DNA of 64,000 nucleotides from an uncultured Chloroflexia bacterium. GTDB taxonomy: Bacteria > Chloroflexota > Chloroflexia > QHBQ01 > JADMIH01. Position 1 is the first letter of the stretch; each line of letters opens with the position of its first letter. Below the pieces are notes generated by a model. That model did not search any database. It was not told where the DNA came from and saw nothing but the letters and a program-made list of their open reading frames with translations. Location: assembly GCA_963797095.1 (NCBI GenBank), contig CAWCNY010000006.1:800001-864000 (forward strand), given 5' to 3'. The position numbers and the translations under genes were made by a program. Below, piece after piece: positions 19,752 to 24,626 of the stretch.

Positions 19752-21136
19752 TCAAGGCAATACCAGATAAAGGGCCTGCATACCTGATCGAAGGTGATCG
19801 TTTACGTGGCAATGGAATAACCAGGTACCTACCGCATCGGGCACCATGTCCATCACCGTCATCATGCCGGGGAGCAACTGCGTCATATCTGTACGCATCC
19901 CTCCCGCCATTCCACCCATACCGCCCACCGTAACCAGGGTGTTGCCATGCCAGTGGGGGCTGTGCACGTCGGCTTCGTTACCCATATCGAAGACATACCA
20001 GCGCACCGTTTCACCCCTGTGCATTACCAGGCCTGGCAGATTACTGAAAATATACCCGTTGATCGAATGCTTCAGATTGTCTTCAAAGAAGGCGTCGTCA
20101 TGAGGGTCAATGGGGCCTTCAGACGCTGCCTTGGCCCTCGCCTGCTCTGCTTGATGCGCTGCTGCCCTATCGGCTGCCTCTTGTTGTGCGTCCTCCTGGT
20201 CTTCGGCCCCGCCTTGACCATGCTCCGCTGCCTCTTCTTGCGCCGATGATTGATTAGCTGGTGGTGCCGCCCCCGGTGGCGCGTCTATCAACGGTCGTCC
20301 TATATACGTGGCCGCATTGCAGCCTAGATACCAGCTCTCATTCTCGTCAATGATGCTGAACATAGCGACGAACTCTCGGTCCACATCAACAGGGCTGCCA
20401 TCGGCTCTTACCATACCGCGCGCAGTGATAATAATAGGGCCGACCAACCCGCTGTTCACATCCTTGATCTCGTTGACGTGCGAATGATACACCCAGAGCA
20501 CCGAGCTACCGTCGCCGGGGCCTGGACCTGCACGTTCCGGAACCTGCCAGGTATAAACATAGGTGCCGCCGGGAGGCACAGCATCGTCATCCTTATCCGA
20601 TCCTGTTGTGCCGTCATTATAAGGAGCGCCCTCTGAGTCCTTCCCATAGAGCACCCCATGCGGATGCATACTGGCGGGATACTCGGTGTTGTTCTTGAAG
20701 TGGATCACTATCGTATCGCCCACCACCGCGCGGATCAATGGACCCAGCATCCCCAGGTGTTCCCATTCGGGCGGGCGCGGTTTGAGCTCTGTGAATGTGT
20801 CGTCGGTATATTCACGATACAGTGATTTGCGATAGACACTGCCGATCTGCCTGTCCGTGGTCTGCACGTAGATACTCGCCTCTGCATCGAACGGCTGCCC
20901 GGTAATGTTGTTACGATTGAGGGGGCATAGTCCCAGACAACTTCATCAGCAGCTATATAGTCCCAGACAACTTCATCAGCAGCTATATAGTAGGTCCTCG
21001 TCACAGGGTTGTCGGCAAATATAGTATGACCTGCCACAGACCTGGCGGCAGACCACACACCAAGCACCAGTAGTGGGATAAGGATCAAAGCAAATATCAG
21101 GCGTATAAACCTGAACGAGGATTGCCGTAGCCGCAT
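19752..21136 (-). pseudogene. Secreted two-domain multicopper oxidase, frameshifted near 20920 (real lesion or assembly error)
   Basis: The signal peptide and YYIAADEVVWDYAP are in one frame; SMHPHG, YHSH, HSPHWHG and FHCHVNDHLRSGM are in another. Adding one base restores YAPS-NRNNITGQPFD. Confidence 0.8.
20927..20991. repeat. Exact 30-bp tandem duplication within the MCO gene
   Basis: atagtcccagacaacttcatcagcagctat x2, giving YIAADEVVWD twice. Confidence 0.9.
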
Positions 21137-21236
21137 TGAATTCGCCCCTTACTGCCCCAATCATGCCTCAAGAGCAAGTCCCATTGAGCCTGTCAAAACC
21201 GCAGGCAACGCTGCCAATCTCCTCTGAAAATAAGAG

Positions 21237-22481
21237 TTAGGCCACTTGTTGAACCTGTTGAATAGGCACAAGCTGCACCTGGTATCCAAGGCTCTCCAAG
21301 CGACGGACTGCCCGCTTCTCTACCATCTGCCGTTCTCGCTCATCAAAGTAGTTGCCTCCCAACTCCTGGTATGATACCCGACGCAAAAGCACATGATACA
21401 CAATCACCAAGATAGAATGAGCTACCGCTACCATCGCTCTCTTGCTCCCTCTTCTACGCACCAACCGCCCGTATTGAGCCGCCAGGTATGTGCCTTTGGT
21501 ACGCACTGCCCCATGTGCTGCCTCTATCAGCACCGCCTTGAGCCACGGACTTCCCTTGCGCGTCTTCCCACTCAACCGTTTACCCCCGCTCTGGTTGTTG
21601 CCCGGACACATGCCCGCCCAAGAAGCCAGGTGGTGCGCAGACGCAAATCGGGTCATGTCCACTCCTATCTCCGCTACCAGCACTTGAGCCGCTCGCTCCG
21701 AGATGCCCGGCACACTGTCCAACATTTCCAACTGCCCCTCCTCAACGAAAGGGCGCGCGCTCTCCTCAATCTCGGTGCTCACTCTCTCTATGGACGCATC
21801 AAGATAGTCAATGTGTCCAAGGTGCTCGGCTATCATGAAGCGGTGGTATCCGCGCACTCTACCGGAAAGAGCCGCCACCAACGCTTCGTGCTTCTCCCTC
21901 AGCCGTCCCTGGGCGAGATCGGCCAAGATATTGGCATCAGTCTGCCCATCAACCAGCGCACCCAACATGGCTCTGGCCGATACACCCATAATATCGGTGG
22001 CAACTCCTGCCAGCTTGATGTTGGCATCCTCCAGTATCTTCTGCAACCGATTGATGGTATTCGCTTTCTCCCTCACCAGCGTAGTGCGGAAGCGGGTCAA
22101 CTCCCGCAGGTCACGTTGTGCGGCATCTGGGATGAAGCTCCCTCGGAGCAACCCGTGCCGAAGCAGATCGGCTATCCACTCCGAGTCCTTGACATCGGTC
22201 TTACGACCAGGCACTGCCTTGATATGCTGGGCGTTGACCACCAACAACTCGAACTGCTCGTAGCCTTCCAACAGGTTGTAGATTGGCTTCCAGTAAACGC
22301 CGGTGGACTCCATCGCCACATGGGTGCACCCAACTTGCGCCAGCCAATCAGCCATGTGCAATATGTCGGCGGTCATGGTACTGAAGGTACGTACCGCCTT
22401 ACCAGAGGGAGTGAGCAAACAAGCCACTATCGTCTTCTTGTGTACATCAAGACCACAGCATCGCTCGTAAATCGCGTTCAT
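21237..22481 (-). CDS. IS110-family DEDD recombinase/transposase, 414 aa
   Basis: GLDVHK, MESTG and KTDVKD (RuvC-like DEDD), SVPGI, and NQSGGK with the conserved Ser; AAGGAGGT RBS. Confidence 0.95.
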   Translation of the reverse strand: MNAIYERCCGLDVHKKTIVACLLTPSGKAVRTFSTMTADILHMADWLAQVGCTHVAMESTGVYWKPIYNLLEGYEQFELLVVNAQHIKAVPGRKTDVKDSEWIADLLRHGLLRGSFIPDAAQRDLRELTRFRTTLVREKANTINRLQKILEDANIKLAGVATDIMGVSARAMLGALVDGQTDANILADLAQGRLREKHEALVAALSGRVRGYHRFMIAEHLGHIDYLDASIERVSTEIEESARPFVEEGQLEMLDSVPGISERAAQVLVAEIGVDMTRFASAHHLASWAGMCPGNNQSGGKRLSGKTRKGSPWLKAVLIEAAHGAVRTKGTYLAAQYGRLVRRRGSKRAMVAVAHSILVIVYHVLLRRVSYQELGGNYFDERERQMVEKRAVRRLESLGYQVQLVPIQQVQQVA

Positions 22482-22506
22482 GGACCACCTTACCTCCTTG
22501 CTTGTA

Positions 22507-22546
22507 ATCTGATCCGATCTGATCCGATCTGATCCGATCTGATCCG
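22507..22546. repeat. Tandem repeat (ATCTGATCCG)4
   Basis: Four exact 10-bp copies between the candidate bridge RNA and the transposase RBS. Confidence 0.9.
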
Positions 22547-22549
22547 CGT

Positions 22550-22770
22550 AACGCTTTACAGTCAGTGCGAAGAGGTCAGCCAACAGGGTGCCCACTATGC
22601 AAAGAATCTCCTCTACGTGCTTCCCAAGAGAGACCCCAGTACAAGGATCCCCAGAATGGGAGCGACAGACAATGGTGCCTGGGGACACCCAGGTCATACT
22701 TAGGTACAGGCTCGTGGCACCAGACTTCGCCCGACCTTTAGCGTTGGCTGCCTCTCGCAGACTGCAGACT
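22550..22770 (-). ncRNA. Candidate IS110 bridge RNA (boundaries approximate)
   Basis: Contains an 8-nt copy of the left target flank (22697-22704) next to a hairpin, and a 10-nt copy of the right-end junction (22605-22614). A TATACT -10-like hexamer lies at 22773-22778. Confidence 0.65.
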
Positions 22771-22851
22771 AAAGTATAACCATTTTCATTCGCTATGGTG
22801 GCCCGTAGGGTCATGATTACTTAGGGGAAGAATTAGCCGGTGTCAACGAAA

Positions 22852-22920
22852 TTTAACAATTGATAATAAGATTTACAAGAAGTTTAACGATTGCGCACCC
22901 AGCCTTAAATGGTTCTTAAC
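22852..22920 (+). promoter_or_regulatory. Pho-box-like direct repeats upstream of the phosphatase gene
   Basis: TTTAAC 22852, TTTACA 22872, TTTAAC 22883, CTTAAA 22904 and CTTAAC 22915; two pairs are at 11-bp spacing. Confidence 0.5.
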
Positions 22921-23108
22921 AGTTCTCATATATACTGCTCGTCAGGGATCCAACATCCCACGAGGCGTGTTGCACCCGCTCCTGAAGAACACGCCCTCAA
23001 TTCTTACCACCTGCTATTGAGGCCATATTTACAGTTCAGGTGGAAAGGCTATCGAGTTTACTCTTTAGTTTCATTTAGTCACAGACTTTAATTCAGGAGG
23101 GAGCTCTT

Positions 23109-24626
23109 ATGTCTCTAAAGGTATGGTTCCGCGTGCTGGTGGCTGTGTTCATACTGCTTGCGGTGGCGAGTAATGCAAGCTTGATGGGAAGTAATAGCGC
23201 ACAGGCCGCTGGAACGTTCGACAAGATCAACCATTTTATCGTCATTTACCAGGAGAACCGCTCGTTCGATTCGCTTTATGGTCAATATCCGGGCGCAAAT
23301 GGGCTGGCCAATGCCGGGGCAGCCGTAAACCAGGTTGACAAAAGTGGCACCCCTTACACAACTTTGCCCCAGCCCCTCAACAGCAACCTCAAACCTGTTG
23401 CTCCCGATCCTCGTATCCCTGCTACTTTGCCTGTCCAACCGTTCGATCTGAGCCTCTATATAGCGCCCAATGACAAGACAGGCGACATGGTGCACCGCTA
23501 CTACCAGGAGCAATACCAGATCGACGGCGGCAAGATGGACAAGTTCGTCGCCTGGACCGATTCGCAAGGCCTGGTGATGGGCTACTACAACGGCACCAAC
23601 ATGCCCGAAGGTTTGCTTGCGCAGCAGTACACGATGGACGACAACTTCTTCCATGCAGCCTTCGGTGGCTCTTTCCTCAATCACATGTTCCTGGTCTGCG
23701 CGTGCGCTCCCTCCTGGCCTGATGCTCCCGCTTCCAAGGTCGCCAAGCTGGACGCCAACGGTGTTATTACCACCGATGGGGCAGTAACACCCGACTTCTA
23801 TGTGGTCAATACATCTTTCACGATCAATTCGCCCCACCCGCCCAACATCACCGATACCACCCAGCTCGTTCCTGAGCAGACCGCCCCCACAATCGGCGAC
23901 CGCCTGAGCGACAAAGGCATCTCCTGGGCATGGTATTCAGGCGGGTGGAACGATGCAATCGCAGGTAATCCCGATCCCTTGTTCCAATTCCATCACCAGC
24001 CGCTTGCCTTCTTTGCTAACTACGCTGACGGCACTTCCGGGCGCGCCGCGCACCTGAAGGATGAGAACGACTTCCTCACGGCTCTGCAAACCAACAGCCT
24101 GCCTGCCGTGTCGTTTGTCAAGCCTATCGGCGAGCAAAACGAGCACCCCGGCTACACCAGCCTGGCCGAGGGCCAGGAACACGTGGCGGACCTCGTCAAC
24201 GCTGTCAAGAACAGCCCGTACTGGGCCGACAGCGCGATCATCATCACTTACGATGAGAATGGCGGTTCCTGGGATCACGTAGCTCCTCCCGTTGTTGACA
24301 AGTGGGGCCCAGGTACGCGCGTGCCCACAATCATAATCTCGCCCTTTGCCAAGAAGGGGTTTGTGGATCACACTCAATACGATACCACCTCGATACTGAG
24401 GACAATCGAGCAGCGTTGGGATCTTGCGCCTGTGGCCTCGCGTGATGCCATCGTAAATGACCTTGCCAACTCGTTTGACTTCGGCACATCCGCTGTGAAC
24501 CCTGGAATGCCTACCACCGGCGAAAGTTCCTTCAACCTGTGGTGGGTCATTGTAGGCGCTGCCTGCCTGATCCTCATAGGCATGGCCATCGTCTTCCGCG
24601 ACCGCGTCCGCTCGCTACTTAGCTAG
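23109..24626 (+). CDS. Secreted AcpA-type acid phosphatase/phosphoesterase with a sortase-like anchor
   Basis: Signal peptide, QENRSFD (Ser nucleophile), GGSFLNH, NEHPG, YDENGG.WDHV and GTRVP; C-terminal MPTTG followed by a TM helix and basic tail. Confidence 0.9.
   Translation: MSLKVWFRVLVAVFILLAVASNASLMGSNSAQAAGTFDKINHFIVIYQENRSFDSLYGQYPGANGLANAGAAVNQVDKSGTPYTTLPQPLNSNLKPVAPDPRIPATLPVQPFDLSLYIAPNDKTGDMVHRYYQEQYQIDGGKMDKFVAWTDSQGLVMGYYNGTNMPEGLLAQQYTMDDNFFHAAFGGSFLNHMFLVCACAPSWPDAPASKVAKLDANGVITTDGAVTPDFYVVNTSFTINSPHPPNITDTTQLVPEQTAPTIGDRLSDKGISWAWYSGGWNDAIAGNPDPLFQFHHQPLAFFANYADGTSGRAAHLKDENDFLTALQTNSLPAVSFVKPIGEQNEHPGYTSLAEGQEHVADLVNAVKNSPYWADSAIIITYDENGGSWDHVAPPVVDKWGPGTRVPTIIISPFAKKGFVDHTQYDTTSILRTIEQRWDLAPVASRDAIVNDLANSFDFGTSAVNPGMPTTGESSFNLWWVIVGAACLILIGMAIVFRDRVRSLLS

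Follow-up and report, generated by a model that had tools for sequence, protein, structure and literature searches.

An IS110-family insertion sequence of an uncultured Chloroflexia bacterium with a predicted bridge RNA and an AG core

Introduction

Bridge (seek) RNAs are under development as programmable recombinases, and nearly all mechanistic work has been carried out on IS621-like elements with a CT core. Could the non-coding end of a distant relative specify such an RNA and, if so, which of its letters would read the target and which the ends of the element itself? The question is raised by a stretch of 64,000 nucleotides (nt) from an uncultured Chloroflexia bacterium (GCA_963797095.1, contig CAWCNY010000006.1, positions 800,001 to 864,000; hereafter the window), in which positions 22821-21219 on the minus strand are an intact IS110-family insertion sequence. 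An original prediction, made from the letters of the window, had noticed that the non-coding end of this element repeats parts of its junctions and had proposed a candidate bridge RNA of IS621 type with an AT core. This interpretation was partly supported by our analysis, being right in kind and wrong in detail: corrections concern the core, the boundaries of the element, the guide on the right-hand side and the fold. According to the reading presented here, which as a whole we consider very probable, this is an IS110 element with a DEDD plus Ser recombinase, RNA guides and an AG core, and a bridge (seek) RNA of approximately 210 nt with a three-way-junction fold would be encoded in its 338-nt left non-coding end.

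The comparative evidence comes from the left ends of 80 genomic relatives (51-65% protein identity), which reduce to 56 distinct RNAs with a conserved layout. Hypotheses were formed on these genomic RNAs, and every test was repeated on 57 further distinct RNAs from metagenome contigs.

The recombinase

The recombinase gene is located at 21237..22481 (minus strand) and encodes a protein of 414 amino acids (aa) matching PF01548 (E 2.2e-36) and, in its C-terminal part, PF02371 (E 1.1e-21). The NCBIfam model NF033542, named “IS110 family RNA-guided transposase”, scored 293 bits against a cut-off of 140. In a distant alignment to IS621 (8wt6, E 2.6e-13), residues D, E, D and D of the query stand opposite acidic residues of IS621, and the serine of its QSG motif stands opposite the serine of the IS621 motif ESG; according to the available text of PMC11208158, these acidic residues and the serine are the catalytic residues of IS621. 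The longest mechanical reading frame is larger (21237-22814, 525 aa, with an ATG at 22814). All 80 genomic relatives start aligning at the ATG at 22481, which is thus taken as the real start, so that the extra 111 codons (22482-22814) represent the non-coding end read in frame and open by chance.

By these similarities, the protein and the general mechanism place the element in the known IS110 RNA-guided family, in agreement with the original prediction. As a matter of genome annotation the element is ordinary, since current NCBI family models already call its protein an RNA-guided transposase. The clade to which it belongs is common: by tblastn, 3225 plasmid records were matched, the best match having 59.9% identity.

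Limits of the element and its core

The insertion sequence proper spans 21221..22819 (minus strand) and measures 1599 base pairs (bp), or 1601 bp counting one core; its left end begins with TAATCATG and its right end closes with TTTTCAGAGG. Upstream of the gene there are 338 nt of non-coding DNA, and downstream 16 nt separate the stop codon from the last base of the right end (18 nt with the core). The host genome harbors a second full copy 28 kb away (G000:C6:792420-794032), 100% identical over 1613 bp, and a 140-bp right-end fragment standing alone on contig C1 (G000:C1:492451-492590, L006), 99% identical and with the same AG terminus, which provides a third right junction. On the left, the two copies show ...TTCCCCTA-AG-TAATCATG and ...CTCACCTA-AG-TAATCATG at their junctions; on the right, ...TTTTCAGAGG-AG continues with ATTGG in the window copy, CTTTC in the other copy and TTACG in the fragment. 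The core is therefore AG, with its left copy at 22821-22820 and its right copy at 21220-21219, the flank beginning at 21218, and it is not the AT that had been proposed: the sequence common to the three right junctions stops at AG, which makes the T of the AT reading, like the A before it, a peculiarity of the window copy.

The relatives agree with this assignment. Among those with a single ATTTTC[AG] motif downstream of the gene, ATTTTC[AG]-N4 is followed by the dinucleotide AG in 33 of 39 genomic cases and in 20 of 25 metagenomic ones, the others having AA, AC or TC. In three relatives (L043, L072 and L096) tandem copies are found in which right end, core and left end directly abut, and these junctions show that the left end begins at the base next to the core. 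Finally, a variant of approximately 97.5% identity, present at a different site on one contig in each of two sequencing runs of one study, aligns exactly over 21219-22825 and is unlike the window beyond these positions. An exact 24-nt pattern of the guide region gave 0 matches in metagenome contigs.

The version put forward in the original prediction combined the AT core with an 8-nt left target CCTAAGTA, a CCTGGG/CCCAGG hairpin and caCCAtt as right target guide. In its favour, the window copy, alone among the copies, has AT at both ends, and the internal 10-mer AGAGGAGATT copies its right junction exactly. We nevertheless regard this version as scarcely credible, since GAGGAG is followed by CT in the other copy and by TT in the fragment, the variant at a different site stops aligning at 21219, AG is conserved among the relatives in the proportions just given, and the tandem junctions start the left end directly after the core; moreover, neither its right target guide nor its hairpin follows the variation among relatives described in the next two sections. 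The ends that accompanied it (21217 and 22825) included two flank bases too many on the right and, on the left, the four target bases plus the core.

Target and donor guides

Three segments of the left non-coding end change together with the DNA that they would read. The left donor guide (22608..22614, minus strand) consists of AGAGG plus AG, repeats the right element end and the core in sense orientation, and is preceded by a conserved AGCACG. When the six RNA letters two bases past AGCACG were compared with the six DNA letters after ATTTTC[AG], genomic relatives agreed in 5.74 of 6 letters on average, against 3.16 +/- 0.17 when RNAs were paired with the DNA of other elements (the permuted mean, also given second in the comparisons below), and the agreement was perfect in 35 of 38; in the metagenomic set it reached 5.91 of 6 against 3.33, and was perfect in 21 of 23.

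The left target guide (22697..22704, minus strand) reads CCUA, AG and UA. The first four letters correspond to the left target (LT) CCTA at 22822..22825 (minus strand), which lies in the flank outside the element and forms part of the ACCTA common to the window copy and the second copy. The ten letters before UGAC, compared with the DNA upstream of the left repeat, scored 8.65 against 6.02 in the genomic and 8.65 against 6.17 in the metagenomic set. With the junction placed from LT and core only, DNA and RNA were identical also in the two bases that follow in 32 of 36 genomic and 30 of 34 metagenomic cases, and this agreement past the core resolves the 8-mer into target (CCUA), core (AG) and the first two left-end bases (UA). 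The left target guide thus continues beyond the core into the first 2 nt of the element, and hence matches the product junction.

The right target guide (22722..22731, minus strand), a top-strand guide, consists of GGCGAAGU and a terminal CU, which is complementary to the AG core. The letters directly 5' of GGUGC were complementary to the right flank in 4.34 of 8 positions against 2.67 +/- 0.15 (genomic) and in 4.13 of 8 against 2.78 (metagenomic). For the left donor, left target and right target guides no permutation reached the observed value in either set, and a position-by-position matrix returned the same three guide diagonals. At the level of sequence comparison, covariation of the three guides with flanks and ends is thereby shown, as is that of the fold treated below.

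Part of what the original prediction had recognised is confirmed by these results. Both the left target and the right element end do recur as sense copies in the long 5' non-coding end, the copy in the target loop preceding that in the donor loop, which is the order of bridge RNAs; positions 22697-22704 track the insertion flank across relatives, a test that the prediction itself had suggested, and positions 22608-22614 track the element end. Both repeats on which it was built occur exactly twice in the window on the minus strand, the 8-mer CCTAAGTA at 22818-22825 and 22697-22704 and the 10-mer AGAGGAGATT at 21216-21225 and 22605-22614. Its chance estimates for a second occurrence within approximately 330 nt (about 0.5% for the 8-mer and 0.03% for the 10-mer) were arithmetically right. 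Over the whole window 0.78 +/- 0.75 matches would be expected for the 8-mer, with at least two in 17 of 100 shuffles, and 0.12 +/- 0.36 for the 10-mer, with at least two in 1 of 100, so that by whole-window shuffles alone the 8-mer is not significant; the tracking in 56 plus 57 distinct relatives constitutes the stronger evidence.

The meaning given to the repeats could be retained only in part. The 8-mer had been taken as a copy of the left flank, which holds for CCTA, while its AG is the core and its TA the first two bases of the element. Likewise, seven of the ten letters of AGAGGAGATT (AGAGG plus AG) do belong to the element end and the donor guide, while the trailing ATT matches only the flank of the window copy, and its RNA counterpart falls inside a conserved A-N-U-C motif. 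As to caCCAtt, proposed as the right target guide, its CACC is a conserved motif and the letters that follow copy a subterminal site in the left end instead of tracking the right flank; it is positions 22731-22722 with which right flanks covary.

A sister element in the same genome (G000:C8:92466-93923, L003), with approximately 66% DNA identity, has the left donor guide (UAGAGGAG) and the donor-loop segment X described below unchanged, and differs in its left target guide (UCAG-AG-UA), its right target guide (GCCCCAAC-CU) and its left flank (GGTCAG-AG). Judged from the two sequences, this pair looks like a natural retargeting with the donor side kept.

Could the structured left end instead be mainly a cis-acting leader, which controls translation of the recombinase or read-through into its gene while the protein picks the target and the guide-like matches are incidental? 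The RNA core does lie within the 5' leader of the gene and on the same strand. In a Firmicute subclade, the ribosome-binding region complements the core plus the left-end tip (8/9 or 7/9 letters), and in the present element the GAUUAC that directly precedes the ribosome-binding site is complementary to the GTAATC of the tip. A purely cis-regulatory leader does not predict, however, that the element-variable letters change with flanks and ends in two independent sets, and the sister element retains the donor guide and differs in target guides and left flank. We judge this explanation very improbable as a full account of the left end, while noting that cis-regulatory and guide roles are not mutually exclusive.

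Predicted fold of the RNA

Under the guide reading, the predicted bridge RNA core comprises 209 nt (22559..22767, minus strand) closed by stem S1 (22767-22743 with 22584-22559), which encloses the entire structure. Within it, the P2 strand GGUCG (22732..22736) pairs with UGACC (22696-22692) and closes the target-binding loop, in which a conserved spacer, GGUGCC-ACGAGCCUG (22707..22721), separates the two target guides. A long-range helix, with GGGUGUCC (22683..22690) as its 5' strand and GGGCACCC (22593-22586) as its partner, closes the donor-binding loop. The top of the donor loop carries hairpin H3 (22622..22661), which includes an insertion of approximately 30 nt without counterpart in the aligned relatives. 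All of these features are read on the minus strand.

In an alignment made from sequence only (A1), 74.6% of the cells of this fold were paired, compared with 61.9 +/- 0.9 in shuffled alignments and 36-51% when the partner strand was slid, and P2 alone was paired in 94.6%. The covariation score was 0.372 against 0.185, with 0 of 500 shuffles reaching the observed value, and changes on both sides were found in 24 of the 25 pairs. Duplex energies, which do not depend on an alignment, point in the same direction: the long-range helix had -14.9 kcal/mol for cognate strands and -8.8 +/- 0.4 kcal/mol for non-cognate ones (-16.0 vs -10.3 in the replicate set), and S1 had -23.1 against -15.0 +/- 0.5 kcal/mol (replicate -25.2 vs -17.5). 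The 209-nt segment folds with z = -4.26, while a fold of 276 nt representing the whole left end reached z = -2.33.

The hairpin CCTGGG-tgtc-CCCAGG of the original prediction can be formed by the present sequence but received little support from covariation (65.5% paired vs 62.0 +/- 1.6 shuffled, with its covariation score reached by 33 of 500 shuffles); it is not the conserved fold, and its 5' half pairs instead with 22593-22586. Another candidate, a pairing of GGUGCC with GGCACC, was rejected: it was paired in 80.7% against 80.8% shuffled, so that the complementarity follows from conservation alone.

Putting guides and fold together, recombination would be centred on the AG dinucleotide at both junctions. 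The target loop closed by P2 would present the top-strand guide (GGCGAAGU-CU) first and the bottom-strand guide (CCUA-AG-UA) second, and the donor loop closed by the long-range helix would bear the left donor guide (AGAGG-AG) on its 3' side. By analogy with IS621, ISEc11 and CazIS110-1, we infer that the RNA is made, is bound by the recombinase and directs recombination. A TATACT box (22773..22778, minus strand), 6 nt upstream of S1, resembles a -10 element and may be part of a putative promoter; it is conserved among the aligned relatives with the consensus TAT-N-N-T.

Evidence weighing against the proposed reading

Several observations weigh against this reading or narrow it. The relatives are not independent of one another, and the permutation counts therefore overstate significance; in addition, for single-copy elements the left junction was located using the guide itself. 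A search of Rfam over 20500-23500 gave 0 matches at E up to 1, and a simple scan for a sigma-70 promoter found none on the minus strand of the left end. The empty site was not recovered: the flanking gene was matched in 15 of 41 genomes (its own genome and G016, an unpublished genome from which no conclusion is drawn, included) at 76% identity or less, and no match reached the intergenic stretch adjacent to the element. For this reason the left limit is less directly proven than the right one, and rests on the logic of the AG dinucleotide, on the relatives and on their tandem junctions. The right flank of the window copy fits the right target guide poorly, and full copies in the host genome number just two. 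Lastly, a canonical right donor guide, that is, a complement of the core plus the left-end tip, was not found: a first search gave 6.15 against 6.06 +/- 0.09 for permuted pairs, a re-run on the genomic set gave 6.08 against 6.04, with 94 of 300 permutations as high, and the metagenomic set showed a weak excess (6.09 against 5.89, reached by 4 of 300) without a consistent position. The re-run on the genomic set did pick up its positive control, the right target guide, at 6.63 against 6.06, a value attained by 0 of 300 permutations.

The small copy number also bears on whether the element might be an inactive relic, its matches being fossils of past activity. Besides the two full copies and the one fragment, what speaks for this is the lack of a near-perfect free target: the host genome contains 0 free sites matching the predicted 15-nt target with one mismatch or fewer, and 11 with two mismatches, a number within the range of 1-31 obtained with 20 shuffled patterns. 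Yet over 1613 bp the two copies show 100% identity, the reading frame and the catalytic residues are intact, and close variants are found at a different site in other samples, which together render a relic improbable.

Segment X and the right donor guide

At the place in the donor loop that mirrors the position of the right target guide in the target loop, i.e., on its 5' side, the relatives show a different kind of match. Segment X, CACC-AUUGU-CU (22667..22677, minus strand), is a sense copy of a subterminal site of the left end, CACC+ATAGC (22792..22800, minus strand), located just outside the left repeat. Over 9 nt, X and the left-end site agreed in 6.91 positions against 5.34 +/- 0.12 in the genomic set and in 7.12 against 6.10 +/- 0.09 in the metagenomic set; for the variable 5 nt the values were 3.89 against 2.76 +/- 0.09 and 3.93 against 3.14 +/- 0.08. 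None of 2000 permutations reached the observed value for either length in either set. In the present element 7 of the 9 letters agree. Comparisons of X with the right end and with both flanks, in either sense, gave no signal.

A possible interpretation, which we put forward tentatively and hold to be rather doubtful, is that the element belongs to a widespread clade whose bridge RNA has a design of its own. In this design the RNA lies upstream of the gene, as in the IS110 type, guide order and 7-bp subterminal repeats recall IS1111, the left target guide enters the element by 2 nt, and donor recognition may follow a new mode in which X replaces the canonical right donor guide. Between the tip and the subterminal site lies an imperfect DNA palindrome, TGACCC-TAC-GGGCCA (22799..22813, minus strand), with one mismatch in this element; in most relatives a palindrome directly follows CATG, with a mean fold z of -1.4 and z below -1.5 in 21 of 51. 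In the distinct-design interpretation this conserved palindrome would loop out. Both donor contacts would then be on the bottom strand, leaving the top strand free, an arrangement that, if true, would suit the top-strand-only transfer proposed in recent preprints.

The chances are about even, on the other hand, that X is not a DNA-pairing guide at all, and that the likeness reflects a shared protein-binding sequence, mimicry by transcripts that read through the left-end tip, or descent by duplication. X has the same sense as the top strand of the left end, and hence the wrong polarity for a canonical right donor guide; CACC is conserved both in X and in the left-end site; and the agreement in this element is limited to the 7 of 9 letters mentioned. 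Set against this are the covariation of the variable 5 nt, reached by none of the permutations in either set, the lack of any relation of X to the right end or to either flank, and its position mirroring that of the right target guide.

In six Firmicute relatives the last 13-15 nt before the start codon form a ribosome-binding region, UGGAGGUCU (in L060, L064, L068, L071 and L080) or UGGGGGUAU (in L086), complementary to the core plus the left-end tip in 8 of 9 letters (L060, L064, L071 and L086) or 7 of 9 (L068 and L080). This region could be the right donor guide in that subclade, or it could block the translation of read-through transcripts.

Comparison with known systems

The likenesses to IS621, as described in the available text of Durrant et al. 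2024 (PMC11208160) and Hiraizumi et al. 2024 (PMC11208158), concern the general plan. In both, the recombinase is of the DEDD plus Ser type and the left end encodes the RNA, which has separate target and donor loops; a 2-nt core stands at both junctions; the bottom-strand guides repeat, in sense orientation, the left target and the left donor, each together with the core; and the top-strand right target guide terminates in the complement of the core. The differences, subject to the same descriptions, concern the details. The core is AG here and CT in IS621; the top-strand guide lies on the 5' side of the loop and the bottom-strand guide on its 3' side, opposite to their arrangement in IS621; the RNA forms a three-way junction closed by a long stem; a 2-nt “handshake-like” extension is attached to the left target guide, whereas the extension of IS621 comes after the right guides; the search for a canonical right donor guide was negative here; the subterminal inverted repeats measure 7 bp instead of 2-3 bp; and the protein, of 414 aa, is only distantly alike (E 2.6e-13). 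The IS621-type architecture supposed in the original prediction thus did not hold, given that guide order, core and repeat length all failed when checked, and we do not classify the RNA as one of IS621 type.

The repeats in question are TGAAAAT (22782..22788) on the left and ATTTTCA (21225..21231) on the right (both minus strand), with terminal extensions beyond them of approximately 37 nt on the left and of 4 nt plus the core on the right. Clear subterminal inverted repeats are also a property of the IS1111 elements with seekRNAs (ISEc11, ISPa11, ISKpn4; Siddiquee et al. 2024, PMC11187229), and in these elements, too, the top-strand complement stands 5' of the bottom-strand match. According to the available parts of PMC11187229 and PMC11208160, this order has been reported for the seekRNAs of the IS1111 family, and the reverse order for IS621 and ISEc21. 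Going by the same account of the IS1111 elements, however, their non-coding region is downstream of the gene (here upstream), their repeats are usually 11-13 bp long (here 7 bp), their extensions measure 7 and 3 nt and their protein approximately 340 aa. By RNA position, repeat length, terminal extensions and protein size, the present element is not a typical IS1111 element; exceptions and possible further families within “IS110” are noted in the part of PMC11187229 available.

A third point of comparison is CazIS110-1 (Sun et al. 2025 preprint, 10.1101/2025.10.25.684509), which could be compared by its description only. In that description the target loop pairs with the junction of left target and right donor and the donor loop with that of left donor and right target, in agreement with a left target guide that enters the element; CazIS110-1 is stated there to share the IS621 RNA architecture, in which it would differ from the present RNA. 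Within the reach of our search, no publication on IS110 bridge RNAs mentioned an AG core; PMC11208160 may already show the present layout in its Extended Data Fig. 10c and supplementary tables.

In terms of relevance, the clade offers a natural AG-core system distant from IS621, whose guide positions could be located through covariation among more than 100 distinct natural variants. The IS621 model leaves two features of the clade unexplained, namely the bottom-strand “handshake” on the left target guide and the donor-loop segment that copies a subterminal left-end site instead of providing a right donor guide. If functional, both would widen the design rules and would bear on the question of one- versus both-strand transfer. 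The element itself was to be expected, and we regard the case as one of moderate interest, in which the layout found in the clade, the two extra nucleotides of the left target guide, and segment X deserve the attention of specialists.

Insertion sites and neighbouring elements

The sites occupied by the two copies differ in how well they fit the guides. The second copy is flanked by ACCTA-AG on the left and matches in 6 of 8 positions on the right, whereas the window copy has CCTA-AG on the left and on the right matches 2 of 8 in register, equivalent to three pairs, including a G-T wobble, in addition to the core. Going by these matches, the second copy is in a near-cognate site and the window copy in a “half-match” site, good on the left only, a pattern that has been described for IS621 in the accessible text of two 2026 preprints.

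An element of a third type starts 5 nt past the right end of the sister element, and this two-element composite occurs on two contigs (G000:C8:94081 and G000:C5:607724; L004, L005, L007, L013, L014). In many relatives (L031, L033, L082/L094, L093, L096, L099 and others) the left flank resembles a right end of the clade (TTTTCA-N4-AG), and head-to-tail dimers are found at several loci (L040/L043, L072, L096); these relatives may often be inserted next to each other.

Between the RNA core and the ribosome-binding site, finally, four copies of a 10-nt tandem repeat, GGATCAGATC, occupy 22506..22545 (minus strand). None of the RNAs of the 113 aligned relatives has this repeat. Its copy number varies between samples, as contigs of runs X1 and X3 are shorter by 10 nt in this stretch and a contig of run X4 by 5 nt.

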